64,000 nucleotides of DNA from an uncultured Peptoniphilus sp. (GCA_902489255.1 CABTZF010000001.1:9032-73031), one strand, 5' to 3'. Shown: positions 18,777 to 32,691, counted from the first letter of the stretch. Notes: generated by a model from the sequence alone, not told the origin. Made by a program: numbers and translations.

Positions 18777-19408
18777 AAAAGGCACTATTAATTTCCGGCG
18801 GAAGCAAGGTATCTAAAAGTTTAATAGAAAAGTATAAGGGAAGATTTACAATTGTTGCAGATGGCGGTATGAAAATGTTAAGAGAATATAATATAAAGCC
18901 TAACCTAATAATGGGAGATTTGGATTCTATGGATTTAGCTACAATTAAGTTCATTAGAGATAATGATATAAAAATTGGAATTTTCCCATCTAATAAAAAT
19001 TTAACAGATACGGAGATTTGTCTTAATAAATTAATAGAAATGGATTATAAGGATATAATTATTCTTTCGGCACGTGGCAGCCGTAGTGACCATGAACTTG
19101 CAAATATATTTTTGCTCATTAAACTATATAAAAAAAATATATTGGCAAAAATTGTTGATGGCAATAATGAAATTTATTTTTTGGGAAAGGGAACTTATAT
19201 TTTTAAGAAAGATAATAAAAAATATTTATCCCTTATATCTTTAAGTAAAAATTCAGTATATTCAACTAAAGGTTTTAAATATGAGGTAGAAAGTTTAATG
19301 ATTTCTAGAGATAATCCGGGTTTTGGTGTTAGTAATGAAATTAAAGATACTATAGGTAAAATAATTATAGAAAAAGGAAAAGTTTTTTTGATTAGGTCTA
19401 ATGATTAA
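18773..19408 (+). CDS. thiamine diphosphokinase
   Basis: 211 aa with GDLDS motif, and the conserved rpe-thiN position seen in Firmicutes. Confidence 0.8.
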   Translation: MKKALLISGGSKVSKSLIEKYKGRFTIVADGGMKMLREYNIKPNLIMGDLDSMDLATIKFIRDNDIKIGIFPSNKNLTDTEICLNKLIEMDYKDIIILSARGSRSDHELANIFLLIKLYKKNILAKIVDGNNEIYFLGKGTYIFKKDNKKYLSLISLSKNSVYSTKGFKYEVESLMISRDNPGFGVSNEIKDTIGKIIIEKGKVFLIRSND

Positions 19409-19418
19409 TAAATATTTC

Positions 19419-19447
19419 TTGCAAAAATTGTTTTTTTTTGATAAAAT
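19419..19447 (+). promoter_or_regulatory. sigma-70 type promoter upstream of rpmB
   Basis: TTGCAA (19419-19424), 17-nt spacer, TAAAAT (19442-19447). Confidence 0.45.
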
Positions 19448-19489
19448 AATTCTTGCGTTTACATTAGAAAAATAATTGGGAGGTGTCTT

Positions 19490-19681
19490 ATGTCTAAGAA
19501 ATGTGATATTTGTGGAAAACAAAAAGTGTTCGGAAATAAGGTCTCATTCTCTCACCGTAAAAGTAATAGAAGCTGGGCTCCTAATATTAGAAGAGTTAGG
19601 GCTGTAGTTAATGGAAGTACAAAAAGAATCAATGTTTGTACAAGATGTTTGAGATCTAATAAAGTTGAACGTGCAGTGTAG
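19490..19681 (+). CDS. rpmB: 50S ribosomal protein L28
   Basis: 63 aa, basic. MSKKCDICGK..SFSHRKSNRSWAPNIRRVR is the typical bL28 sequence. Confidence 0.93.
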   Translation: MSKKCDICGKQKVFGNKVSFSHRKSNRSWAPNIRRVRAVVNGSTKRINVCTRCLRSNKVERAV

Positions 19682-19704
19682 AAAGGGATTTAAAGTCCCT
19701 TTTT
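19682..19704 (+). terminator. rho-independent terminator after rpmB
   Basis: AAAGGGA(T)-TTAAA-(G)TCCCTTT hairpin running into a T stretch, immediately after the rpmB stop. Confidence 0.65.
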
Positions 19705-19751
19705 AAGTACACAAAATTATTTAAAGTTAAAATATGTGTATGGAAAAAATG

Positions 19752-19804
19752 AACTGACCGGCAGAAGTTGGAGTAAAATCCAATTAAAGCGGGTCGGTTT
19801 TTTT
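19752..19804 (+). terminator. orphan terminator-like compound hairpin
   Basis: AACTGACCGGC (19752-19762) pairs with GCGGGTCGGTT (19789-19799): 11 positions with one G-U and one mismatch. It encloses a nested TTGGA/TCCAA stem and is followed by a T run to 19804. No intact ORF upstream. Confidence 0.45.
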
Positions 19805-19890
19805 AGTTACGATTACATTTTTTATAATCCACTTTTTATAGGAATATTTTCAGTTTTTATATAAAATATATAGCAAAGGGTCATGTTTTG

Positions 19891-20124
19891 ATGGGAGAAG
19901 TTATACTCTTAATTGAAATAATTATTTTATGCTCTCTTTTTTTATGATATGCATTTTTGAAACGGGGATAGATAGAAAAATTTAAAAAATTATACTCCCT
20001 ACCCGGATGAAGTTCAAAAAAGAATAATGGAGATACCTGAGTATAGTGGCAAGTTTAAAGATAAAGGGACATTTGCTATATTTATGGAGAATTTTTTATT
20101 ATTTTTAGTATTATTTTTTTTTAA
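19891..20124 (+). pseudogene. decayed N-terminal fragment of a small polytopic membrane protein gene
   Basis: Three frames together read MGEVILLIEIIILCSLF / FMICIFETGIDRK / NLKNYTPYPDEVQKRIMEIPEYSGKFKDKGTFAIFMENFLLFLVLFFF. The shifts fall at a T run (about 19937-19943) and an A run (about 19975-19979). The reading ends at the IS remnant boundary. Confidence 0.45.
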
Positions 20125-20182
20125 ATCACAACAATAAGTTAGCCACTTTTGAATACTAAAGTAAACAAGTGATATAACTTTC

Positions 20183-20610
20183 CTAGCTAGCTAGGGAATT
20201 TTTTTCTATTAACTTAAATTCCTTCATAAATGCTTCTTCAGCAGTGATATATCCTAAAATCTTTCTTGGATAATTATTCATCAAATTCATTATTCTTTCT
20301 ATTTGTTTATCTGTGTATCTACCTATTTCTTCGCCATTTTTAATGAATCTTCTTATTAACTTATGTTGATTTTCACTTGTTCCTCTTTCATAGGAACTGT
20401 AAGGATGACAATAGTAAATTTTTACATATTCACATATTTTTGTTAAGCTTGAAAATTCTAGTCCATTGTCTGATGGCAGCTACATATTTTTTTAGAAATT
20501 TCCCTATTGCTATATCCTTCGCCTTTATATGCCTCTATTAAAATCATTTCTTTTTCTGAAAGATGGCTTCCTTTTATGTTTCTCTTTATGTAATTATTTA
20601 GATAAGTCAT
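20183..20610 (-). pseudogene. IS30-family transposase, internal deletion plus frameshift
   Basis: N-terminal HTH part MTYLNNYIKRNIKGSHLSEKEMILIEAYKGEGYSNREISKKI is joined out of frame to the C-terminal DDE part SDNGLEFSS..YYCHPYSSYERGTSENQHKLIRRFI..NNYPRKILGYITAEEAF. The two Asp-containing catalytic segments are missing. Confidence 0.75.
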
Positions 20611-20669
20611 GTAAACTTTATGATATATTAGTAATGACCAAAAAACCAAATTCACAAAGTTTACATGAC
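20606..20669. repeat. perfect 14-bp inverted repeat overlapping the transposase start codon
   Basis: GTCATGTAAACTTT (20606-20619) and AAAGTTTACATGAC (20656-20669) with a 36-nt loop, followed on the + strand by TTTTTTATTTT. Confidence 0.8.
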
Positions 20670-20926
20670 TTTTTTATTTTAATGTGGCTTACTTCATTTT
20701 ACAATCTTCCTAAAAAGATTAAATATAATTTTAAAAAATTCAAAAAATATCACCCTTAATATGATGTGGAAAAGTTAAAAGTTTAGTAATATAATATTAT
20801 AAAGGATAAAAAAGTATATTTACATATTTTCTCAAAAAGAAATTTTTGGAGGCGATTGCTATGTATTTTTTAATAGCGAAGAAGTTAGAATGTAAAAGTT
20901 TTTAATCTAAATAAAAGGAGGAAATT

Positions 20927-21688
20927 ATGTCAAAAAAGTTTTTAAGTATTTCAATGATTTTAGTCTTTGCTTTTTCACTATTTTCTTTAGGCGATAAGGT
21001 TTATGCAGGCATAAATGACTTTTATGGCTATGGTGATGAAGCGGGCGAAGTAGATTATAATGATGGATATGTAAGTGCAGAAGAAATGATTTCAAATCTT
21101 CCTTACAAAGATGTTGACAAGAATTCTTGGTATGCAATTTATGTTTACGAAGCATACTATGCTGGCATTATTAAGGGAAAATCAAAGGACACTTTTGATC
21201 CTACGGGAAAGGTTACTATGGCAGAGCTTGCCACTATTTCTGCAAAACTGCGAATAGAAAGAATGGTTTCTGCATCAGACATCGTAACAAAAAAGGGCGA
21301 TGTTTGGTATATGCCTTATGTTAGATATTGTTATGAAAATGGGGTTTACAACGACAAAAATGTAAAAAATGGCAAAAAAACTCTTGAAAATTGTCAAGAT
21401 TGGAATAGACCAGCCAAGAGAAGTGAAGTTGCAGGAATGCTTGCAAATTGTGACAATTTTTACAAAATGGGATTCATAAATCCTGATGTTCCAATGACAG
21501 ATATTAATGATATAGATAGCAATATGAAATTTTCAGAAGAAATTTTAACCCTATACAGGGCTGGAGTTGCTGTTGGCGATAAAAATATGAGATTTCATCC
21601 CAATGAAAAAGTTACAAGAGCTGAAGTGGCAGCTATGGTAACTAGAATTTTATACGACGATTATAAAATTGAATTGCCAAAGGGATAA
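20927..21688 (+). CDS. secreted SLH (S-layer homology) repeat protein
   Basis: Signal peptide MSKKFLSISMILVFAFSLFSLGDKVYA. SLH-like repeats (YKDVDKNSWYAIYVYEAYYAGIIKGKSKDTFDPTGKVTMAELA; a degenerate middle copy; TDINDIDSNMKFSEEILTLYRAGVAVGDKNMRFHPNEKVTRAEVAAMV). No other domain is apparent. Confidence 0.75.
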   Translation: MSKKFLSISMILVFAFSLFSLGDKVYAGINDFYGYGDEAGEVDYNDGYVSAEEMISNLPYKDVDKNSWYAIYVYEAYYAGIIKGKSKDTFDPTGKVTMAELATISAKLRIERMVSASDIVTKKGDVWYMPYVRYCYENGVYNDKNVKNGKKTLENCQDWNRPAKRSEVAGMLANCDNFYKMGFINPDVPMTDINDIDSNMKFSEEILTLYRAGVAVGDKNMRFHPNEKVTRAEVAAMVTRILYDDYKIELPKG

Positions 21689-21700
21689 TGAGGTCATGAT

Positions 21701-22447
21701 ATGAAAATTTTAAAAAAGAAAAATATAATTTCAAAATTAATGCTACTTACTTTAATTTTATCTTCTTTAATACTTTGTGGATTTAAAGTTCAACGACCTA
21801 TTAAAATTTATATTAACGGACACTTTGTAGAGTCAGACCAACCGCCAATTATTTGGGATAACAGAACTTTCGTCCCGGTTAGAGTAATTGCAGAAGACCT
21901 TGGCGCCAAAGTAGACTACAACAAGGAAGACATGACTGTGACCATAAGAAGGGATAAGACGGATATTTTACTTGCAATTGGCGATGACATGGCTTGGTTT
22001 TCAGATGAAGAGAAGGCAGGACCGGTTATGTTAGATGAGCCGGCCTTTTTGAAAAACAATAGAACCTATCTGCCGCTTAGGTCTATTTCAGAATTATTTG
22101 GAATGAATGTTGATTGGAATGGGGTGAAAAGGACTGTATACATCAACGATGAATTTTATCTTCCTGACTATATTAATGCAGATAATGCATTAGAAGAAGT
22201 CCTTGAGAGATTGAAGGAACTTGGAATTTTTAAAAATGAAAAAGTTTATTTTGAGGTAGATGACTATGAAATGAAGCTAGATGGCGGAAGTTATGAGGGC
22301 TATCTAGTTACAATTAGGAAGGACAACCCTATTGATGAGAATTTGACGGAAATGATGGGACAATACTTCATCAACAAGAAGGGGACCCTTCTTATGGAAT
22401 ATGATGTTGTTAAAGATAATTTTAAATTGTTAATTGGAGTTAATTAA
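21701..22447 (+). CDS. membrane-anchored copper amine oxidase N-terminal (stalk) domain protein
   Basis: N-terminal hydrophobic anchor. INGHFVESDQPPIIWDNRTFVPVRVIAEDLGAKVDYNKEDMTVTI and NRTYLPLRSISELFGMNVDWN match the Cu_amine_oxidN1 repeat pattern. The C-terminal 100 aa or so are unassigned. Confidence 0.7.
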   Translation: MKILKKKNIISKLMLLTLILSSLILCGFKVQRPIKIYINGHFVESDQPPIIWDNRTFVPVRVIAEDLGAKVDYNKEDMTVTIRRDKTDILLAIGDDMAWFSDEEKAGPVMLDEPAFLKNNRTYLPLRSISELFGMNVDWNGVKRTVYINDEFYLPDYINADNALEEVLERLKELGIFKNEKVYFEVDDYEMKLDGGSYEGYLVTIRKDNPIDENLTEMMGQYFINKKGTLLMEYDVVKDNFKLLIGVN

Positions 22448-22472
22448 AAGTTAAAGATATAAGGAGGAAATA

Positions 22473-23745
22473 ATGGGATTTATACAAGCTTTTATGGGTT
22501 CTTTAGGTGGAACACTAGCAGATCAATGGAAGGATTTTTATGGGCCAATGCCAGGAGTGCCTGCAACAGCAGCAGTCTTTCCTGGAATACCTATGGGAGT
22601 AAACAACAAGAGGGGAGCAAACTATAAGGGCAATGAAAATGTAATTACTAATGGCACAAAGGTAATAGTACCTGAAGGCACAGCCCTTATAACTATTCAA
22701 GATGGAGCCATTACAAATATTATTACTGAAGTTGGCGGTTATGAATATAACACAGAGGACCCCAACTCTAAATCAATATTTGCAGGCGACGGCTTTGTGG
22801 ACTCAATAGTTAAGTCCTCTTGGGAAAAATTCAAGTTTGGCGGCATACCTGCCACTAGCCAACTGCTTTTCTATGTGAACTTAAAGGAAATTCCAAACAA
22901 CAGGTTTGGCACACAGTCAGAAATTTATTGGGACGATGCCTTTTTTGGCACACAAGTTGGTGCCATAACTCGTGGCACTTACACCCTTAACATAATTGAC
23001 CCGATTTTATTTATAAAAAATTTTGTGCCAGTAAAATATTTAATTGCCGATGCAGAAGTTTTTGACTTATCCGACATGGATAATGACGCAGCAGAACAAT
23101 TATTTAACGAAGTTGTTGGAAGTCTTTCAGCTGCCTTTTCAAATTATACAAATGATCCGAGTAGGGGCAATCGAATGAGCAGAATCCAAGGCGACCAAAT
23201 TGGCTTTGCCCAAGCTCTCTCAGGCAGTGGAAGAAGGATATCAATGGAAGACATCAAGAGGACTTCAAATTGCAAAGACTGCAATACTTGCCATTGAATA
23301 TGACGAAGACACTAAAAAACTCATGTCCGATGTTAAAAAGGCAGATGCCCTTGCCGGCAGTCGAGGAAATTCATTTTTCCAACAAGCAGCAGCAAGAGGT
23401 ATTCAATCTGCCGGTGAAAATGGCGGCGGAGCAAATATGGCATTTATGGGTATGGGCATGAATGCAGCCGGAAATATGATGGGTGGAGTTAAACAACCGG
23501 ATACAGGAAATTCTTACCAAGCAAATTTTGGTGCGGGACAATTTAATCAAAACCAAGGATATGGTCAAGGTGGACAACAAAATCCAAATCCGAATCCTAA
23601 TCAAAATATAAACCAAAATCCAAGTCCAAGCCAAAGTCAAGAAGACCCTACAGAAAAATTAATAAAGATGAAAAAACTTCTTGATGCCGGAGTTATAACG
23701 GAAGAAGAATTTGCTAAAATTAAGTCTGATTTGCTAGGCATATAA
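22473..23745 (+). pseudogene. SPFH (Band 7, COG4260 / YdjI-like) protein with C-terminal SHOCT domain, interrupted by a +1 frame change
   Basis: ORFs 22473..23297 and 23200..23745 are consecutive parts of one protein: MGFIQAFMGSLGGTLADQWKDFY N-terminus, then ..SQAVEEGYQWKTSRGLQIAKTAILAIEYDEDTKKLM.., an N/P/Q-rich linker, and a SHOCT-like tail KLIKMKKLLDAGVITEEEFAKIKSDLLG. The frame switch lies between about 23190 and 23215. Confidence 0.7.
23581..23640 (+). repeat. degenerate hexanucleotide tandem repeat (10 units, consensus AATCCA) encoding an NP/NQ/SP/SQ linker
   Basis: aatcca aatccg aatcct aatcaa aatata aaccaa aatcca agtcca agccaa agtcaa, read directly from 23581-23640. Confidence 0.85.
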
Positions 23746-23756
23746 GAGGTGATCTT

Positions 23757-25286
23757 ATGAATGAAGACAATTCAAGAGAAAATGTCAAAATAATTGAAGG
23801 CGAAGAAAATTTAAAAGATGGTCAGGTAAAATGTCCAAAATGTGGCTCAACAGATATTGCCACTAATACAAAAACAGGCAAGCTTAGATGTAATTTTTGT
23901 AGGCATGAATTTGAATTGGCTCTTGCACCGGAAGATGAGGAAATCAGCACGTTACAGGGAACAACAATAAGAGCCGGTGCCAAAGACATAGATGAAGGAG
24001 CTAAAGATTTAATTACACTAAAATGCGAGAGCTGTGGTGCAGAAGTTGTCATTGATACGAGAACTACTACACACGCGAGATGCCACTGGTGCCGCAACAC
24101 CTTGTCTTTAAATAATCAGATTCCTAATGGTGCTGTGCCCGATGTAATTCTACCTTTCAAAGTTTCAAAGGAAGATGCAAAAAAAGAAATTGCAGGTTTT
24201 GTAAAGGCTAGAAAATTTTTTGCTCACCCAAGCTTTACAAGAGAATTTTCTACAGAAAATATTTGCGGAGTTTATATTCCCTATATGTTAGTTGATGTAA
24301 ATGCACACATGAGGCTTGAAGGCGAAGGAGAGATCGAAACAGCTTGTCGTGAAATAGAAGAAAATGGCAAAAAACATTATGAATATGATGCAGATGTATA
24401 TAATGTTGTGAGAGATTTTGACATATTTATAGATGACTTATCTATTGAATCTTCAAGCGACAAACTAGATTACTCATCAAAAAATAAAACTAACAATATA
24501 ATAAATTCTATTATGCCTTTTGATACAGAAAATTGCGTAAACTTCAATTCAAATTATTTGACAGGCTACACATCTGAAAAAAGGGACATTAATATAGATT
24601 ATATTCAAAAGGTAGTCCATGCACAAAGCTCTGATATGGCAAGATTTGAAGCAAAGAGGACAATAAAAAAATATGATAGGGGAGTAAGATGGAAGGTAGA
24701 AAATTTTGAGGTAAAGGGCGATTCTTGGAAGGCAGCTTATTTGCCGGTGTGGCTTTATAGCTATATGCAAACTAAGGGCAAGAAAAATTTGCTTCACTAT
24801 GTAGCAGTAAATGCCAGGACTCTGGAAACTATGGGTAGTGTGCCAATTAATTTTACAAAACTTTATTCCATTTCAATTTTAATTGAAATTTTTGGAGGAA
24901 TATTGGCATTTATAATAACAACCTTTGCTGCACTTGAAAAATATAATGGCACAGATTTTCAAGAATATAGTAATTACTCTTGGCTCTTATTACTTTCCGG
25001 ATTTGTATTTTTTGTAACTATGTATTTGCGATACAGAAATGCCAATGCTAGACATAATTACGAGTTTGAAACTAAACACGAGATTTCAAACCTTGTCTGT
25101 GAAGATGACTTTGTGAGAAGTATTTATTCAGTGAGAAACAGTCAAATTTGGGGAGATAATACAGATGAACTAAAGGGTAACAAACTCGACCTCAAAAAAG
25201 ATAAAGTGCTTAAAAAAGCTATGGATAAGGGAGCCTTAGATGAAGCAATTGAAAATCAACAAAAATTAGAAAAAAAAGACCAATAA
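23757..25286 (+). CDS. double zinc-ribbon membrane protein (TFIIB-type zinc ribbon, YdjG-like architecture)
   Basis: 509 aa. Two CxxC..CxxC ribbons (CPKCGS..CNFC; CESCGA..CHWC), a central domain of about 250 aa, two TM helices (LYSISILIEIFGGILAFIITTFAAL; YSWLLLLSGFVFFVTMYL) and a charged C-terminal tail. AGAGGTGA SD. Confidence 0.6.
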   Translation: MNEDNSRENVKIIEGEENLKDGQVKCPKCGSTDIATNTKTGKLRCNFCRHEFELALAPEDEEISTLQGTTIRAGAKDIDEGAKDLITLKCESCGAEVVIDTRTTTHARCHWCRNTLSLNNQIPNGAVPDVILPFKVSKEDAKKEIAGFVKARKFFAHPSFTREFSTENICGVYIPYMLVDVNAHMRLEGEGEIETACREIEENGKKHYEYDADVYNVVRDFDIFIDDLSIESSSDKLDYSSKNKTNNIINSIMPFDTENCVNFNSNYLTGYTSEKRDINIDYIQKVVHAQSSDMARFEAKRTIKKYDRGVRWKVENFEVKGDSWKAAYLPVWLYSYMQTKGKKNLLHYVAVNARTLETMGSVPINFTKLYSISILIEIFGGILAFIITTFAALEKYNGTDFQEYSNYSWLLLLSGFVFFVTMYLRYRNANARHNYEFETKHEISNLVCEDDFVRSIYSVRNSQIWGDNTDELKGNKLDLKKDKVLKKAMDKGALDEAIENQQKLEKKDQ

Positions 25287-25303
25287 AATTTTGGAGCTTT
25301 ACT

Positions 25304-25899
25304 ATGAAAAAATCTAAAATTAAAATTATTTCTTTATTCTTGGCAGTTATTTTAATGTCAATAAGCTTAGGAGCATGCGCAAAAAAAATGCAGGCACAGA
25401 AGAAGCTGCCAAAGAAGAAGTCAAGACAGAGGAAGCAAGTGAAAAGGAAGAAGAAATAACTTCAGACCAAAGTCTTTTTGAAATTGCAGGAAATAAATTT
25501 GAATTAATTGCAAGTAATCTAATGGAAGACTCCGATGGCGATACAGACCTTGTAAACACATGGAAATTTACAAATAATACCAAAGAGGCAAGATCAGCTG
25601 CCTTAAATGTCTATATAACCTTTATGCAAAAGTACCAAGAACTGGACACACCGGGATCAATTTTCATCAAAGAAGGGTCTACAGACCAATTAAGTGACTA
25701 CGCCTTTGAAAATGTAGAGCCCGGACAAAGTGGAGTTTTCTTCACATCCTATAAATTGAAGGACAAAGAAAGTCCGGTTACAATTAAAATCTCTGACATA
25801 GATGGAGCAGATGAAAGTAAAATAGAAGTGTCAATTGCAGATATGGAAACTGTCACAGTTGACGCCTTAGTTTACCTCAATAGTTATTTAGCTAAATAA
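25304..25899 (+). pseudogene. lipoprotein gene split by a frameshift in an A8 tract just after the lipobox Cys
   Basis: ATG 25304 encodes MKKSKIKIISLFLAVILMSISLGAC (signal peptide plus LGAC lipobox). After the A8 run (25381-25388) this frame stops at about 25462. The mature part (ORF 25375..25899, acidic linker plus a beta-rich domain) is in the adjacent frame and would be joined by A9. Confidence 0.7.
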
Positions 25900-25970
25900 A
25901 AATTATTTTCATTATTAATAGTAATAAATATAAATATTATTATATTACAATATTTTTATTTCTACCTAAA

Positions 25971-26010
25971 CCCCTTTATTGGAAAATTTCTAATAGAGGG
26001 GATTTTTTTT
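25971..26010 (+). terminator. rho-independent terminator ending the envelope operon
   Basis: CCCCTTTATT (25971-25980) pairs with AATAGAGGGG (25992-26001) with one mismatch, followed by a T8 run (26003-26010). Confidence 0.7.
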
Positions 26011-26410
26011 GCTTTATGAAAATATTGGGGAGACTCCTTAATTAGAGTCTCTTTCATTATGAAAAAATTAACATTTATACGCTAATAGGATATCAAATTA
26101 AAATGACAAAAAAACTACTAAAAACAAGAATAGGAAATTATACCTTTAGAGGATTTGCATTTTTTTCTATTTCAATAATTACTACTTACAAGCAAACAAA
26201 ATCCAACTGAAGAGAATGCCTTTAGACAATTAATATTAAGCCGATGGTTCAAACAATCAATTAGGTGTATGCCTATGGAAAAATTGACCTATGAAATTTT
26301 ACTATTAATAAAAAAAATTAAAATGGTTATTTACATTAAAAAATATTAAATTTGAAATAAAAAAACTATGGTATAATATAGATGATAATTAGTATCAACC
26401 GGAGGATCAA

Positions 26411-27019
26411 ATGTTCAAGTGTTTTTTTGAAAATTTTAAAAAGCCAAAAGACAATTTTGGCGGCAGATTTATGTTAAAGAGTATGAATAAAGGGCATGAA
26501 AAATTAGCAAGGTGGGGAAGGTCTTACTTAAATATTGATAAAGATTATACTGTCCTAGATTTGGGCTGCGGTGGTGGACGAAACATTGAATATTTTTTAA
26601 CTAAAGCTGATAAAGTTTATGGAATTGACCACTCAGAGGCAAGTGTAAAAATGGCGAGTGAAATAAATAAAAAAGCAATAAAGTCCTGTAGGTGTCAAAT
26701 ATTAGTGGGAGATGTGAAGAACCTTCCATTTGAAGATGAATCCATAGATATTGTTACAGCTTTTGAAACTATTTACTTTTGGACTGAAATAGAAAAGTGC
26801 TTTAAAGAAATTTATCGAGCCTTAAAAAAAGGCGGACAGTTTTTAATATGCAATGAAGTATCGTCTAAGGAAAGAAAAGATGTAAAAAAATTAGCGGATA
26901 TTATAGATATGGAAGTATACACACCTGAGGACTTGACAAAAATGCTTACAGAAGTTGGTTTTAAATCCCAATACCATTTAGACAGAAAAAAACAAATGGT
27001 AGTTATTGCTAAAAAATAG
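26411..27019 (+). CDS. class I SAM-dependent methyltransferase
   Basis: 202 aa. Motif I VLDLGCGGGRN, acidic loop GIDHS, post-I/II pattern VGDVKNLPFEDESIDIV, and LKKGGQFLI. Confidence 0.8.
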   Translation: MFKCFFENFKKPKDNFGGRFMLKSMNKGHEKLARWGRSYLNIDKDYTVLDLGCGGGRNIEYFLTKADKVYGIDHSEASVKMASEINKKAIKSCRCQILVGDVKNLPFEDESIDIVTAFETIYFWTEIEKCFKEIYRALKKGGQFLICNEVSSKERKDVKKLADIIDMEVYTPEDLTKMLTEVGFKSQYHLDRKKQMVVIAKK

Positions 27020-27047
27020 ATGTGATAAAGAAAGGCAAGGGATAAAA

Positions 27048-27157
27048 ATGAAATATCACAGCTTTTATTTCAATTTATTTAAGCATCCTAAAAAAAAGTT
27101 TTACTGGAAAAATACGAAGATAACTATGCCAGAGAAATAATAAAAAAAGAAAAATAA
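27048..27157 (+). pseudogene. N-terminal remnant of a paralog of the 28829..29455 gene
   Basis: MKYHSFYFNLFKHPKKK, then after a shift in the A8 tract 27090-27097, VLLEKYEDNYAREIIKKEK. This parallels MKYKCFYFLFFKRPMKKVLMEKYDKAYASEIIRKSEK of the downstream gene. It stops after about 36 codons. Confidence 0.6.
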
Positions 27158-27225
27158 TTAATCGAAAATTAATGGTAAATCAAATTTATAATTGATTTCA
27201 TCTAAGAGAAAGAAGGTGTTTAACT

Positions 27226-27864
27226 GTGGCTTTATACAAAAGTATATTAATAGGTCTTATGGGTTCATTTTTGATGTTTTTGGGAGACATGACCTTATAT
27301 TATGATTCAAATGATTACGATGGTAAGGATACTATAAATAATATTATTGGCATAATGAAAAGTGTCAGCATAAAAAGATTATACACTGGTGGTCTTTTAG
27401 GTCCAATATGTGCCTTTATATATTGTATAGGATTTTATCATATTGTTTTGGGCATACAAGAAAAGTATTTAAGCGTTGCTTGGTTTGTCTTTTTATTGAA
27501 TGTTTTTGGCATGATATTAGGGGGCGCTTATCACATTCAATGCGCCTACTTAGGTCTTTTATCAAGATACGAAAACAAAGGAGCTTTTGATGAATTTTTA
27601 AAATTTTTAAAATTTCAAGCAAAAATAGTTTTTGGAATTATGGCTTCAGCAAATATAGCAATAACATTGATAATTTTATTTGGACTTACAATATTTCCAA
27701 GATGGCAAGCCTTATTTACACCTATATTTCTTTTAATTTTTACTCCTCTTGCTGAGAGATTGCCAAAGGGAATCCATATGCTTATTCGCGGAGGTTGGTT
27801 TAACCTAATATATTTTATTTACTACTTATCTTTATTGATAAATTATACTAATATGAATTTGTAA
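27226..27864 (+). CDS. hypothetical polytopic membrane protein
   Basis: 212 aa with about 6 predicted TM helices. GTG start after an AGAAGGTG SD. No motif that I can assign confidently. Confidence 0.55.
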   Translation: MALYKSILIGLMGSFLMFLGDMTLYYDSNDYDGKDTINNIIGIMKSVSIKRLYTGGLLGPICAFIYCIGFYHIVLGIQEKYLSVAWFVFLLNVFGMILGGAYHIQCAYLGLLSRYENKGAFDEFLKFLKFQAKIVFGIMASANIAITLIILFGLTIFPRWQALFTPIFLLIFTPLAERLPKGIHMLIRGGWFNLIYFIYYLSLLINYTNMNL

Positions 27865-27946
27865 GATTATAAGGCTAGAGATTAAAATTATTATTTTAGT
27901 AGACAAAGGGAATTTTATAAAATTAATTATTTAAAGGAGAAAAATT

Positions 27947-28774
27947 ATGAAACAATTAGATTTTATTGATGACAATAAAACAAAAGCTGACTACAAGAAC
28001 TGGGTTCCTGAAAGTTTGTTAAGGAATTTAATACTTGCAAGCCTTATGGCTTTCGTTCTATTTATAGTGCTTGGCCTCAGTGATTTTGTATTTAGTGGAA
28101 GAACTCGTCTAATATGTGCCCTTATTCTTGGGCTTGCAACGTTGATACTTATTTTCTTTGCAAGCTGGATGAGATTTTTATATAGGGCTTTTGATTACAA
28201 CGGGAAAAGAAAGCTTGCCAAAGTCATAATAGAGGGGACTGCCGACTATGTAAAGATCCCAGATGGTGGCGTGGGACTTGACATCGGATGTGGCAGCGGT
28301 GCACTTACCATAGCTTGTGCTAAGAAAAATCCAAAGGCGACTATGGTAGGTTGTGACATATGGAGCGGTTCATATAAAAGTGAATTTTCTAAAAAAGTCT
28401 GTGAAAATAATGCAAAATTAGAGGGACTAGAAAATGTGAGATTTGAAGAGGGCAATGCTGTAAAACTTCCCTTTAGGGATGAGAGTTTTGATGCAGTGAC
28501 AAGCAATTATGTTTATCACAATATTGCAGGGCAAAATAAACAGAAACTTTTACTGGAAACATTTCGTGTACTTAAAAAAGGTGGAGTTTTTGTTATTCAT
28601 GATTTGATGAGTGGGTCAAGATATGGAGATATGAATAAATTCATTGAAAAGCTGAAAAAAGAGGGCTACCAAGATGTGCAATTAATTGATACAACAAGGG
28701 GTCTTTTTATGGGTCACAAAGAAGCCTTATTGTTGGGGCTTCATGGCTCAACTATTCTTATTGGAAGAAAATAA
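27947..28774 (+). CDS. membrane-anchored class I SAM-dependent methyltransferase
   Basis: 275 aa. Two N-terminal TM helices, then GLDIGCGSGALT motif I, VKLPFRDESFDAV and LKKGGVFVIHD. Confidence 0.8.
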   Translation: MKQLDFIDDNKTKADYKNWVPESLLRNLILASLMAFVLFIVLGLSDFVFSGRTRLICALILGLATLILIFFASWMRFLYRAFDYNGKRKLAKVIIEGTADYVKIPDGGVGLDIGCGSGALTIACAKKNPKATMVGCDIWSGSYKSEFSKKVCENNAKLEGLENVRFEEGNAVKLPFRDESFDAVTSNYVYHNIAGQNKQKLLLETFRVLKKGGVFVIHDLMSGSRYGDMNKFIEKLKKEGYQDVQLIDTTRGLFMGHKEALLLGLHGSTILIGRK

Positions 28775-28828
28775 TATTTTATATAAACTACTATAAAATA
28801 TTTTATAAAATTGATTGGGGGGTGCTAG

Positions 28829-29455
28829 ATGAAATATAAGTGTTTTTATTTCTTGTTTTTTAAAAGACCGATGAAAAAAGTTCTTATGGAGAAGTATGAT
28901 AAAGCATACGCTTCAGAAATTATTAGAAAGAGCGAAAAAGTTTATCGAGAACTTGTAGAAAATATGGATGATATCGGCGAGGATAATCCCATGGCATACA
29001 ATGAGATGTTTGCCCTTGCCTTTGTTGCTCCATATATAGCAAGTGAGAAAAAAATTCTACCAGAAACCATCCAGGAAATGATGCGTCGTTCTCTTTATTT
29101 TGTCAAATGGTATTTTTCCTTGATTGATCTCAATACTAAAAGGGGAAAAGAGGCCAATAAGAAAAATATTCTTAAGTATTACAAGTGGTATACAGAGGAA
29201 AAAGAAAAGCTCTATCCAACGTCATTTAAAGTTGATTTTGAAGGGGAACCCTATGAGGGTGCTTGTTATTACAGAATTACTCGTTGTCCCATTTGTGCTT
29301 ACACAAAGAAGCTGGGTGTCGATGAATTAATGCCCCTGTTTTGTGAACTTGATGAGCTTATGATAAGTCTTCAACATGGAGTACTTCACAGAAAAGATAC
29401 TATAGCAAATGGAGCGGATTGTTGTGATTATTTTATTACAGGTGATAGAGAATGA
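28829..29455 (+). CDS. L-2-amino-thiazoline-4-carboxylic acid hydrolase-like (ATC_hydrolase family) protein
   Basis: 208 aa. C-terminal Cys-rich region ACYYRITRCPICAYTKKLGVDELMPLFCELDE..GADCCDYFI resembles this family as I recall it. The remnant at 27048 conserves the N-terminus, which supports the 28829 start. Confidence 0.5.
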   Translation: MKYKCFYFLFFKRPMKKVLMEKYDKAYASEIIRKSEKVYRELVENMDDIGEDNPMAYNEMFALAFVAPYIASEKKILPETIQEMMRRSLYFVKWYFSLIDLNTKRGKEANKKNILKYYKWYTEEKEKLYPTSFKVDFEGEPYEGACYYRITRCPICAYTKKLGVDELMPLFCELDELMISLQHGVLHRKDTIANGADCCDYFITGDRE

Positions 29456-29517
29456 ACTTGAGTTATAGGAATAAGTATTGGTAAAAACTTATAAATGATT
29501 ATTAATGGAGGAAAAAA

Positions 29518-30456
29518 ATGAGTTTAATTTATAAAATTGCTTCGACAATAGTAAAACTTGCCGGTGTCAAAAAAATGTTTTTAAAGAACAAGGAAGAGAT
29601 GCTTGAGTATGCAAAGAAAGAAAATGCAAAGGCGGTATTTGATTTAGATAAGGCAAAGAAAAGGGCGGAGATAAAAAATTACTACCTCATGGACAGAGAC
29701 GTTATGGGTTACAGGCTCATTTCTTATCAAAAAAATAAGAGCCCAGCCCAAGGAGCAGTCCTATATTTCTTTGGCGGAGGAATGATAACACAACCGGACA
29801 AATTAGATTTTGCTTTGTCGGAAAGAATAATGGAACAAATCGGTAAAGACCTTTGGTTTTTATTCTATCCACTTTGCTCGGAAGATGTAAAGATAGACAA
29901 GACATACGAAGTTTCCTTTGAAACCTATAAGCTGATGACCGAAACTTATAAGGCTGAAAACATAAGTGTCCTCGGTTTTTCATCAGGAGCTTGCCTATCT
30001 ATTGGAATATTTCTGCATAACAATGCTTTAGGCAGACCTGTTAAAATGCCCGGCAAAATAATTTCAGTTTCACCCGGTGGCATACCCGATGTATCGCTTG
30101 AAGAAAATAAAGACGTATGGGAAAGAGTAAATGCCCTTAACCACAAAGACATAATGATTGAACCTACATATCTTAAAACGGCAAGAGAGATTACAAAAGG
30201 CGATAAAGACCTGCCTGAATATATGTTAGACGGAACGGTAGGAGATTTTACCGACTTCCCGAAAACATATTTTTATTACGGCGAAAATGAATGCCTCTAT
30301 GCCTTTGCTGACGAATTTAAAAAAGCAATGGAAAAATACAAAGCACCGTACGAAATCATTGTAGGCAAAGGAATGTGCCACTGCTATCCCTTGATGAGAT
30401 TTTTTAAAGAGGGAAGAGAAGCACAAGATGAAATTATCGAATTGCTAAAACAATAG
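29518..30456 (+). CDS. alpha/beta hydrolase (esterase/lipase, fold-3 type)
   Basis: 312 aa. Oxyanion-hole-like FFGGGM, nucleophile elbow GFSSGA (GxSxG), and a C-terminal His region GMCHCY. Confidence 0.7.
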   Translation: MSLIYKIASTIVKLAGVKKMFLKNKEEMLEYAKKENAKAVFDLDKAKKRAEIKNYYLMDRDVMGYRLISYQKNKSPAQGAVLYFFGGGMITQPDKLDFALSERIMEQIGKDLWFLFYPLCSEDVKIDKTYEVSFETYKLMTETYKAENISVLGFSSGACLSIGIFLHNNALGRPVKMPGKIISVSPGGIPDVSLEENKDVWERVNALNHKDIMIEPTYLKTAREITKGDKDLPEYMLDGTVGDFTDFPKTYFYYGENECLYAFADEFKKAMEKYKAPYEIIVGKGMCHCYPLMRFFKEGREAQDEIIELLKQ

Positions 30457-30469
30457 TTGAGGATATAAA

Positions 30470-30967
30470 ATGAAATCACAAGAATTTAAAATGCCTGTTT
30501 TTGGAGTTGGACCGATATATGTTATAACTTGTTTATTTCTAACAATACTAGGGACTTATCTGCATCTTAAAGGATATCTATATGCAGGTGAATCAAGCAG
30601 GGGAAAAATAATTTTTATTATAATAGGAATTCTTTTAATATTATTCGGTCTATATTTATGGGTGCAAGCAGTTATAGTTCAGAAAATAAATAAAAAAGTA
30701 AAAGAAAATAAATTGATTACTATAGGAGTCTATGGCATAGTAAGAAATCCGGTTTATTCAGCGTTCATATTTATATTTACAGGAATTCTTTTTATCGCGG
30801 CTAATTATTTTTTATTAATTCTTCCGCTATTTTTTTGGATTTTTCTAACGGTATTGATGAAAAATACTGAAGAAAAATGGTTGAGGAAAAATTTTGGCAA
30901 GGAATATGAAATATATTGCAATGAAGTTAATAGGATTATACCGTGGTGTAAAAGAAAAAGTTATTAA
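30470..30967 (+). CDS. isoprenylcysteine carboxyl / phospholipid methyltransferase family membrane protein
   Basis: 165 aa with 4 TM helices. GVYGIVRNPVYSAFIFIFTG and EEKWLRKNFGKEY match the ICMT/PEMT C-terminal signature. Starts 13 nt after the hydrolase gene. Confidence 0.7.
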   Translation: MKSQEFKMPVFGVGPIYVITCLFLTILGTYLHLKGYLYAGESSRGKIIFIIIGILLILFGLYLWVQAVIVQKINKKVKENKLITIGVYGIVRNPVYSAFIFIFTGILFIAANYFLLILPLFFWIFLTVLMKNTEEKWLRKNFGKEYEIYCNEVNRIIPWCKRKSY

Positions 30968-31533: not shown

Positions 31534-31632
31534 TCTCGCCATATTAATTTATCACATCCAAATTCTTAATAATGGCGAAAATAATCTCGCCACTATTGAT
31601 TTATATACGCCATTTGTAGTATAATGGCGAGA
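31534..31632 (+). promoter_or_regulatory. tandemly duplicated promoter unit, each copy bracketed by TCTCGCCA / TGGCGA(A/G)A inverted repeats (candidate operators)
   Basis: TCTCGCCA at 31534-31541 and 31585-31592. Inverted copies TGGCGAAA at 31573-31580 and TGGCGAGA at 31625-31632. The second unit carries TTGATT (31596-31601), an 18-nt spacer and TATAAT (31620-31625). Confidence 0.55.
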
Positions 31633-32691
31633 AAGGCGGTGAGTGTTTTGAGAAAGTTTGACTATAAAAAATTATTAAATTTAAATATACCGGCAAAAAT
31701 GTATGATCTAATAGCAAAGATATATGAGCATAAGGGAAAACAGGAACTCTATGTAGCTAATTTTACAGATGTGCTTGAAAAAATGATAGAAGTGGCAAAA
31801 ATCCAGTCTACCAAATCATCTAATGCGATTGAAGGAATTTCTACTAATGATACAAGATTAGAAGAATTAATGAATAAAAAGAGCGAACCAAGAAATAGAA
31901 ATGAAGAAGAAATATATGGTTATAGGGAAGTTTTAGATATTATTCATGAAAACTATGAGAATATTGAATTTACAAAAAATAATATTTTAACTTTACACAA
32001 TAGATTATATTCCTATTCTGTAGAAAGTCATAAAGGCAAATTTAAGACAATTGATAACAGCATAGTTGAAATGAATTCATTAGGTGAAAAAAAAGTAAGA
32101 TTTCAACCTGTATCAGCTTTTGAAACAGAAAATTATATTGATAGAGTTATTAATGCTTATGATGAGGCTGTAGATTTAAAAATACCACCCCTCATATTAA
32201 TTCCAACGGTTATTCATGATTTTTTATGCATTCATCCATTTTCTGATGGAAACGGTAGAATATCACGATTATTAACTCTTCTACTTCTTTATAAAAACGG
32301 ATTTTTTGTTGGCAAATATATTTCATTAGAAATGATAATTGAAGACACTAAAGACATTTATTATAAAGAATTGCAAGCATCAAGTATAAACTGGCATGAT
32401 GGAACAAATGACGAATTACCCTTTATAAAATATATGCTTTCGGTTATTTATAAAGCATATAGTGAGTGCGATGAAAGATTCAAGATTATTGGGGAGAAGT
32501 CATTAACATCTGCAGAAAGAGTAATGAAAGTATTTGAAAAATCTTTAGAACCCTTATCTAAATCGGATATAGTACTGCTTTGTCCGGATATTTCCCGAAG
32601 AACTGTAGAAAGAGCATTAAAAGAATTAAAAGAAAAGGCTCTTATTAAGCAAATAGGAAATGGAAGATCAACTAAATATATTAAAAAATAA
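31624..32691 (+). CDS. Fic family protein (class II, AMPylation-type motif) with C-terminal winged HTH
   Basis: HPFSDGNGRISRLL matches HxFx(D/E)GNGRxxR. The N-terminal SNAIEG matches the (S/T)xxxE(G/N) inhibitory helix. C-terminal ISRRTVERALKELKEKALIKQIGNGRSTKY is wHTH-like. The true start is probably TTG 31648, after an AAGGCGGTGA SD, because ATG 31624 overlaps the -10 box. Confidence 0.85.
   Translation: MARKAVSVLRKFDYKKLLNLNIPAKMYDLIAKIYEHKGKQELYVANFTDVLEKMIEVAKIQSTKSSNAIEGISTNDTRLEELMNKKSEPRNRNEEEIYGYREVLDIIHENYENIEFTKNNILTLHNRLYSYSVESHKGKFKTIDNSIVEMNSLGEKKVRFQPVSAFETENYIDRVINAYDEAVDLKIPPLILIPTVIHDFLCIHPFSDGNGRISRLLTLLLLYKNGFFVGKYISLEMIIEDTKDIYYKELQASSINWHDGTNDELPFIKYMLSVIYKAYSECDERFKIIGEKSLTSAERVMKVFEKSLEPLSKSDIVLLCPDISRRTVERALKELKEKALIKQIGNGRSTKYIKK

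Follow-up and report, generated by a model that had tools for sequence, protein, structure and literature searches.

In Bacillus subtilis, the YdjG and YdjH proteins of the pspA-ydjGHI operon (also named pspA-samGHI) bring YdjI to the membrane, and PspA is recruited by YdjI (PMC8581546). YdjG combines a pair of zinc ribbons with a YpeB/NTF2-like domain and a transmembrane (TM) segment, and YdjH is a TPM protein (PMC11237479). SamI has also been found to restrain SamGH signaling, a phenotype for which PspA is dispensable (bioRxiv 10.64898/2026.02.06.704340). Here we describe an operon of five genes at positions 20927-25899 of a 64,000-nt stretch of DNA (hereafter the window; GCA_902489255.1 CABTZF010000001.1:9032-73031; G+C content 30%) from an uncultured Peptoniphilus sp. 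At its center are an SPFH-SHOCT gene (gene 3) and a double zinc-ribbon gene (gene 4) that correspond to ydjI and ydjG, respectively. We conclude that the operon is not a new system but a version of the known YdjI/YdjG (SamI/SamG) module that is particular to this lineage and has partly decayed. With a probability of roughly 60%, its core is a two-gene envelope-stress module, homologous to YdjI/YdjG, that has no pspA or TPM gene in cis, is joined to lineage-specific partners, and is probably impaired in this strain.

The five coding units are separated by 12, 25, 11 and 17 nt, and GGAGG, GAGG or GGAG occurs 6-9 nt 5′ of every start. A first-pass annotation of this DNA had presented them as one set of co-directional genes with Shine-Dalgarno motifs, gaps of 11-25 nt and a strong terminator. 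ORF (open reading frame) calls and the sequence bear out this layout. The genes are not all intact, since genes 3 and 5 carry frameshifts that the annotation overlooked. Its domain calls are upheld by Pfam for SLH (gene 1), Cu_amine_oxidN1 (gene 2), Band_7_1 and SHOCT (gene 3) and DUF5067 (gene 5). The zinc-ribbon call for gene 4 stands on two CxxC...CxxC motifs but not on Pfam, whose Zn_Ribbon_TF match (1.1e-4) lies below the cut-off.

Relationship of genes 3 and 4 to ydjI and ydjG

Gene 4 is a true homolog of ydjG. Specifically, comparison with YdjG of the Bacillus stercoris pspA-ydjGHI operon, which was found with a published ydjG primer, gives a BLASTP E value of 5e-25 (24% identity over 358 aa) and a tblastn E value of 2.5e-24. 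Colinearity of the two proteins extends from the paired zinc ribbons across the central domain and into the first TM helix. The ribbons of gene 4 occupy residues 26-48 and 90-112, and their cysteines align with those of YdjG. Among 51 sequences, C26, C29, C48, C90, C93, C109 and C112 are invariant, and C45 is conserved in at least 90%. More than 6,300 homologs pass E 0.001 among the 90% clusters scored; at 50% identity there are 3,594 clusters, 207 of which pass 1e-30. The closest named relative of gene 4 is from a Peptoniphilus grossensis metagenome-assembled genome, and the L28 protein of the window belongs to a 90% cluster that bears the name Peptoniphilus. Gene 4 is under purifying selection, with a ratio of nonsynonymous to synonymous polymorphism (pN/pS) of 0.11-0.15.

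Hydropathy analysis (peak at residues 368-394) and an AlphaFold2 (AF2) model of gene 4 (pLDDT 85, pTM 0.80) place TM helices only at the C-terminal end and thus predict a mostly cytoplasmic protein. The model comprises two small ribbons, a central domain, two TM helices (366-391 and 400-427) and a cytoplasmic tail. The central domain (residues ~125-365, pLDDT 88) is predicted to consist entirely of long beta strands of ~25-33 residues, including 170-202, 205-231 and 309-340. When the whole chain or the domain alone was compared with the PDB by Foldseek, the best E values were 0.02 and 0.07, respectively, TM-scores did not exceed 0.14, and no match was significant. The weak matches, which are to ring- or pore-forming proteins, reflect the long hairpins of the model and are not taken as evidence. 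The corresponding domain of YdjG has been proposed to be NTF2-like/YpeB-like (Ravi et al. 2024). A homolog of gene 4 in Aedoeadaptatus acetigenes (P0083) bears the NCBI name 'PDDEXK family nuclease', for which profile and fold searches provide no support. Because no Foldseek match is significant, with nothing below E 0.07 for the central domain, neither this name nor an NTF2-like fold can be supported for gene 4. No significant structural neighbor of the domain was identified in the PDB, even though it belongs to a very large family.

The resemblance of gene 3 to ydjI, which the first-pass annotation had proposed from architecture as it had that of gene 4 to ydjG, is confirmed as family homology. 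The N-terminal piece of this interrupted gene matches Pfam Band_7_1 (6.4e-08; 32.9 bits against a cut-off of 24 bits) and the C-terminal piece matches SHOCT (1.3e-07), and a Gly/Met/Gln-rich linker lies between the two domains. A profile built from 21 sequences of the gene 3 family matches YdjI in hhalign at 97.4% (E 1.5e-11) over 253 columns that include the Gly/Met-rich linker. The intact ortholog has no TM segment, its maximum 19-aa hydropathy being 1.40. A search of PDB sequences with the gene 3 family returned nothing.

Both operons encode a YdjG-type protein with zinc ribbons, a central domain and a C-terminal TM anchor, and a soluble YdjI-type Band_7_1 SPFH protein with a Gly/Met-rich linker. 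The order of these genes is reversed relative to pspA-ydjG-ydjH-ydjI, such that the SPFH gene precedes the zinc-ribbon gene, and the permutation noted in the first-pass annotation is apparent when the Bacillus operon is set alongside. YdjI ends in a zinc ribbon, whereas the gene 3 protein ends in SHOCT, and its C-terminal piece has no Cys pairs and no C-terminal zinc ribbon. Conversely, YdjG is without the second TM helix and the conserved ~80-aa tail that gene 4 carries. The window operon also adds SLH, Cu_amine_oxidN1 (CuAO) and lipoprotein genes, and it includes neither pspA nor a ydjH gene for a TPM-domain protein. Indeed, no pspA-like gene is evident anywhere in the 64 kb, as the first-pass annotation had stated: the best tblastn match to Bacillus PspA has E = 1.2, and YdjH gives no hit either. 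A further proposed equivalence, between gene 5 and ydjH, fails. YdjH is a TPM_phosphatase protein (1.1e-23), gene 5 matches DUF5067 (2e-16), and BLASTP between the two finds nothing.

Other described systems share single aspects of this arrangement. Band_7_1 is the commonest fusion partner of SHOCT (Eberhardt et al. 2013, PMC3581485), and the Band_7_1-SHOCT proteins reported there (PF13421 with PF09851) have the exact architecture of intact gene 3. However, that paper concerns architecture only and does not describe pairing with a YdjG-like gene, and the window copy is truncated. Similarly, the SPFH-NfeD pairs (QmcA-YbbJ, YqiK/YuaG-YuaF) and HflK/C-FtsH place an SPFH scaffold gene beside the gene for a membrane partner and form sub-membrane organizing complexes. 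In the present case the partner comes from an unrelated family, being a YdjG-type zinc-ribbon protein rather than NfeD or a protease, and the SPFH protein has no membrane anchor of its own.

Conservation of the pair and its changing partners

The window region was compared with 93 related loci (80 of them metagenomic), and 917 ORFs were called from the resulting 94 regions. In practically all of the 93 loci that have upstream DNA, the gene immediately 5′ of the zinc-ribbon gene, and co-directional with it, encodes an SPFH-SHOCT protein; in a few, a gene for a small 4-TM membrane protein intervenes. The slot downstream of the pair varies, with occupants that include Yip1 plus zinc ribbon, multi-TM plus zinc ribbon, DUF4428, TMEM43-like proteins and unrelated lipoproteins. 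Outside the Peptoniphilaceae, the SPFH/zinc-ribbon pair alone persists. Neither PspA nor TPM proteins were detected among the 917 ORFs (best phmmer E values 1.2 and 0.94, respectively). The pair thus exists on its own, and strongly conserved, in many Clostridia and Tissierellia; neither pspA nor a TPM gene is present in the flanks examined (up to ~8 kb). This distribution agrees with the finding of PspA-independent roles for SamGHI in B. subtilis, and it suggests that the ancestral unit is the pair rather than PspA.

In the Peptoniphilaceae, the pair keeps additional company. Gene 1 matches Pfam SLH at 1.7e-24, where two stretches exceed the threshold. It contains some three SLH-like repeats in all and has a hydrophobic N-terminal signal at residues 3-23 (hydropathy). 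It thus combines the signal peptide and the SLH repeats that characterize SLH-anchored surface proteins. Gene 2 matches Cu_amine_oxidN1 at 2.7e-33 over residues 37-148, is predicted by hydropathy to have a TM segment at residues 7-31, and has a C-terminal region of ~100 aa to which no domain is assigned; no relative was found among PDB sequences. In the 94-region set, SLH genes occur in 5 loci, Cu_amine_oxidN1 genes in 11 and DUF5067 genes in 6, all of them Peptoniphilaceae-like. Within this group, SLH and CuAO genes have full-length orthologs with 43-53% identity. Those of gene 1, at this level of identity, adjoin the pair in L008, L022 and L024, and orthologs of gene 2 (43-83% identity) are upstream or downstream of the pair in the 11 loci. 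The CuAO gene shifts from the upstream to the downstream side of the pair between lineages, and the flanks differ as well (rpmB in the window versus rplQ in Aedoeadaptatus). Because SLH and CuAO genes are kept with the pair despite this reordering and the different flanks, there is reasonable evidence from gene neighborhoods for a functional link that is lineage-specific. In this regard, the joining of the two genes to the module, as noted in the first-pass annotation, recurs with changed order in another Peptoniphilaceae-like lineage. The annotation also described both proteins as wall-binding, a label that for the Cu_amine_oxidN1 protein is an assumption.

The same annotation had gone further, proposing a new system of five components in which every protein is an obligate part of a single wall-to-membrane scaffold or damage sensor. 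Tight spacing, a single promoter-like site and a single terminator are compatible with this proposal, as is the fact that, in two lineages of the Peptoniphilaceae, SLH and CuAO orthologs have remained beside the pair through rearrangement. However, the set of five is not a conserved unit. In the conspecific strains available for comparison (L100, L101, L102 and L015), homology with the window stops at 25279 and restarts at 25939/26011, gene 5 is absent, and a bPH_2 (PF03703) gene stands in its place. Wherever gene 5 is present in the species of the window, it is frameshifted. The closest sister species (L002/L019) has no SLH gene, and SLH, CuAO and DUF5067 genes are all missing from the loci outside the Peptoniphilaceae. 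Moreover, gene 4 is almost wholly cytoplasmic in the AF2 model, and thus any link to wall proteins would have to pass via its short TM segments. An obligate five-protein system is therefore unlikely.

The bPH_2 gene follows the zinc-ribbon gene in both the conspecific strains and the sister species, and the latter (L002/L019) has both it and an intact DUF5067 gene. In the window the bPH_2 gene is missing and its flanks abut (25939-26420 compared with L015/L100), such that DUF5067 and bPH_2 genes behave as alternative or lost cassettes.

Relatives of the operon also differ from the window in their regulatory genes. In about 10 loci, all of them Peptoniphilaceae-like, genes for a HisKA_7TM-like protein, a second kinase-like (HATPase-like) protein and a LuxR/GerE response regulator are found near the operon. 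This three-gene set is often divergent from it (L002 976-4545, L008 10312-13853, and L019, L020, L022 and L024), and is a candidate regulator of the module. Both the two-component and the bPH_2 neighbors of the relatives were searched for in the window and are absent. An adjoining two-component system is also a feature of lia, and the operon is like the Psp and Lia systems (PspABC, LiaIH-LiaFSR) in its putative sensing of envelope stress. A difference is that neither the window nor the related loci yielded any PspA/IM30, PspC, LiaI/F or Toastrack component.

Some defense islands contain SPFH and zinc-ribbon proteins, and a probable remnant of an IS30-type transposase lies upstream of the operon. 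These facts might point to a phage-derived or anti-phage defense module, a reading that we consider exceedingly improbable. PADLOC has no hit for any of the five proteins, a scan of IMG/VR with the gene 4 alignment found no relatives, and PHROG matches are confined to generic SHOCT or zinc-ribbon pieces. Furthermore, the cluster keeps a stable position within the species and is flanked by housekeeping genes.

Frameshifts in genes 3 and 5

Gene 3 is split into two ORFs. The first, in frame 0, runs from 22473 to 23297 (274 aa), and the linker and SHOCT domain follow in frame +1 as far as 23745. The cause is a strain-specific loss of two nucleotides, where the window reads GCTCT--CTCAGG and four conspecific assemblies read GCTCTTTCTCAAG. 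In these strains, whose nucleotide identity to the window is 96-97.5% over the operon, gene 3 is intact and encodes 424 aa, and orthologs range from 424 to 440 aa. The protein belongs to a 226-member cluster at 90% identity, nearly all listed members of which are 398-440 aa long; the exceptions among those listed are the 274-aa product of the window and one member of 172 aa. An exact look-up of the repaired gene 3 protein did not find it.

Gene 5 is interrupted at a run of eight adenosines. A signal peptide and lipobox (...SLGAC) are encoded in the frame of 25304-25459, and DUF5067 is in another frame, in an ORF that begins at 25375 and ends at 25899. A lipoprotein of 197-198 aa with the junction-spanning peptide ...GACAKKNAGTEE... 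would result if the run were A9 or A6, or if a -1 slip took place on A_AAA_AAA; the product of the -1 slip would be the same as that of A9. The same A8 is present in L016, L017 and L018, which derive from different samples and have different downstream sequences. By comparison, the sister species L002 has an intact 201-aa ortholog with no A run. A second lesion in the window copy, a 1-bp indel near 25870, replaces the conserved ...DALDLPQ end. No relative of gene 5 was found among PDB sequences.

Sequencing or assembly errors could mimic such lesions, in which case all five genes would be intact in the organism. One of the two lesions does fall in a homopolymer. In addition, the sole second assembly of the strain, a Logan assembly (SRR2565953) from an independent pipeline that is 100% identical to the window across 8.7 kb, may share the same reads. 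Against this possibility, a minimum of 28 further A8/T8 runs of the window sit within uninterrupted ORFs, gene 3 has lost 2 bp within CTCTTTCTC, a lesion atypical of homopolymer error, and the A8 of gene 5 recurs in three other samples. Because of these three observations, we regard the frameshifts in genes 3 and 5 as real features of the sequence, and sequencing error as very unlikely. Similarly, no split was seen among the ~60 remaining long ORFs, which abut or overlap by a few bases, although their completeness was not checked against homologs. In total, the window has ~35 A8/T8 runs inside ORFs; runs of nine or more do not occur in coding DNA, and all A9/T9 runs are intergenic. The absence of the longer runs from ORFs suggests selection against slippage-prone coding tracts.

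If the frameshifts are real, then gene 5 might nevertheless be expressed through programmed -1 ribosomal frameshifting, transcriptional slippage or A8/A9 phase variation. The sequence A_AAA_AAA (25381-25387), which joins the two ORFs, has the zero-frame form of a perfect slippery heptamer for a -1 shift, and GGAG occurs 7 nt upstream. The A8 is shared by four assemblies representing at least three strains, and pN/pS of the downstream ORF is 0.31-0.43 rather than ~1, a value that derives from just 8-11 substitutions. However, the 270 nt around the A8 are identical in all four assemblies, and its conservation is therefore uninformative. No RNA structure is predicted downstream of the A8 (fold z +0.52), which together with this identity leaves programmed frameshifting unsupported. 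In addition, no A9 variant was seen, the repaired proteins (A9 and A6) are not among 15 billion sequences, the window copy carries the second indel, and sister strains have lost the gene. Expression of gene 5 by any of these routes is thus quite unlikely, and the gene is probably a pseudogene within a variable cassette.

Since the SPFH gene is truncated and the lipoprotein gene is frameshifted, the module in this strain is probably non-functional or altered, as judged from its genes. For purposes of annotation, genes 3 and 5 should be recorded as pseudogenes or as frameshifted rather than as intact genes.

Proposed function, operon features and flanking DNA

In strains where both genes are intact, gene 3 would specify a soluble, oligomer-forming SPFH (Band_7_1) protein that ends in a SHOCT helix pair, and gene 4 a mostly cytoplasmic double zinc-ribbon protein held in the membrane by its C-terminal TM helices. 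If the B. subtilis system is a guide, the zinc-ribbon protein would draw the SPFH scaffold to the membrane's inner face, and the two proteins would form a sensing and organizing complex for envelope stress. Neither PspA encoded in cis nor the TPM protein YdjH would be needed for this complex to act. SHOCT may stand in for the zinc ribbon of YdjI as a contact or membrane-proximal element. Anaerobic Firmicutes combine the pair with variable membrane or extracytoplasmic partners, and these may supply extracytoplasmic input. The putative partners in the Peptoniphilaceae are SLH-repeat and membrane-anchored Cu_amine_oxidN1 proteins, sometimes followed by a DUF5067 lipoprotein and/or bPH_2.

Several points weigh against this interpretation of the operon core as a YdjI/YdjG-type module. 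The mechanism is borrowed from a system whose proteins are 20-24% identical and which also needs YdjH, absent here, and the pairwise similarity between gene 3 and YdjI is weak (E 0.002). Given the truncation of gene 3, the module may be entirely unused in this strain. Only 64 kb of the genome is visible, and a pspA gene could lie elsewhere. Finally, we infer co-transcription of the five units from their spacing only.

It is possible, and we put this forward tentatively, that the pair represents a widespread, PspA-independent envelope-surveillance module of anaerobic Firmicutes with interchangeable partners, which in the Peptoniphilaceae is coupled to the wall or S-layer through SLH and Cu_amine_oxidN1 proteins. 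In this reading, the YdjG-type central domain could provide an oligomeric platform for an SPFH cage. The Peptoniphilaceae-specific link to SLH and Cu_amine_oxidN1 proteins offers a testable hint about what the module monitors.

The features of the operon are collected in Table 1. All long ORFs of the window, including the five units, are on the + strand. The promoter candidate was identified by pattern only, and its region is colinear with the conspecific strains at 96% identity. No sigma-W-type promoter motif is evident by eye at the operon, where no formal scan was made. No Rfam family reaches its gathering score anywhere in the window, and thus there is no indication of a riboswitch or leader RNA in the 1.2-kb gap upstream of gene 1.

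Table 1. Coordinates of the five coding units and associated features, counted from the first nucleotide of the window
Feature	Position	Strand	Description	Basis
Promoter candidate	20767-20795	+	Sigma-70-like, TGGAAA-17-TATAAT; 10/12 match to consensus; ~130 nt upstream of gene 1	Pattern
Gene 1	20927-21688	+	Secreted SLH-repeat protein, 253 aa	
Gene 2	21701-22447	+	Membrane-anchored Cu_amine_oxidN1 (CuAO) protein, 248 aa	
Gene 3	22473-23745	+	YdjI/SamI-like SPFH (Band_7_1) plus SHOCT, interrupted	
Gene 3 lesion	23217-23220	+	2-bp (TT) deletion, strain-specific	DNA alignment with L002, L100, L101, L102, L015
Gene 4	23757-25286	+	YdjG/SamG-like double zinc ribbon, 509 aa, intact	
Gene 5	25304-25899	+	DUF5067 lipoprotein gene, frameshifted	
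Gene 5 frame junction	25381-25388	+	A8 run	ORF calls, sequence
Terminator-like hairpin	25971-26010	+	14-pair stem with 5 GC pairs, followed by T-run	

The gap upstream of gene 1 (19682-20926) is non-coding and ~96% identical in the conspecific strains. A slightly larger interval (19400-20930) has no similarity in the loci compared first and is colinear with the conspecific strains. Within the gap, a 65-aa ORF on the - strand (20458-20655) matches HTH_38 (E 2.7e-5; 24.3 bits against a cut-off of 27), and this ORF is probably what is left of the N-terminal part of an IS30-type transposase. In several related loci (L031, L034-L037 and L039), ORFs with repeated YAAQPREGTET are found upstream of the SPFH gene on both strands; these probably translate a DNA repeat array such as CRISPR or another tandem repeat.

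Downstream of the operon, 26411-30967 encodes two class I methyltransferases, a DUF6796 protein, an ATC_hydrolase protein, an alpha/beta hydrolase and a PEMT/ICMT-like methyltransferase. These small-molecule modification genes are followed by a gene for a Fic protein (31624-32691), and all of them are unrelated to the operon.

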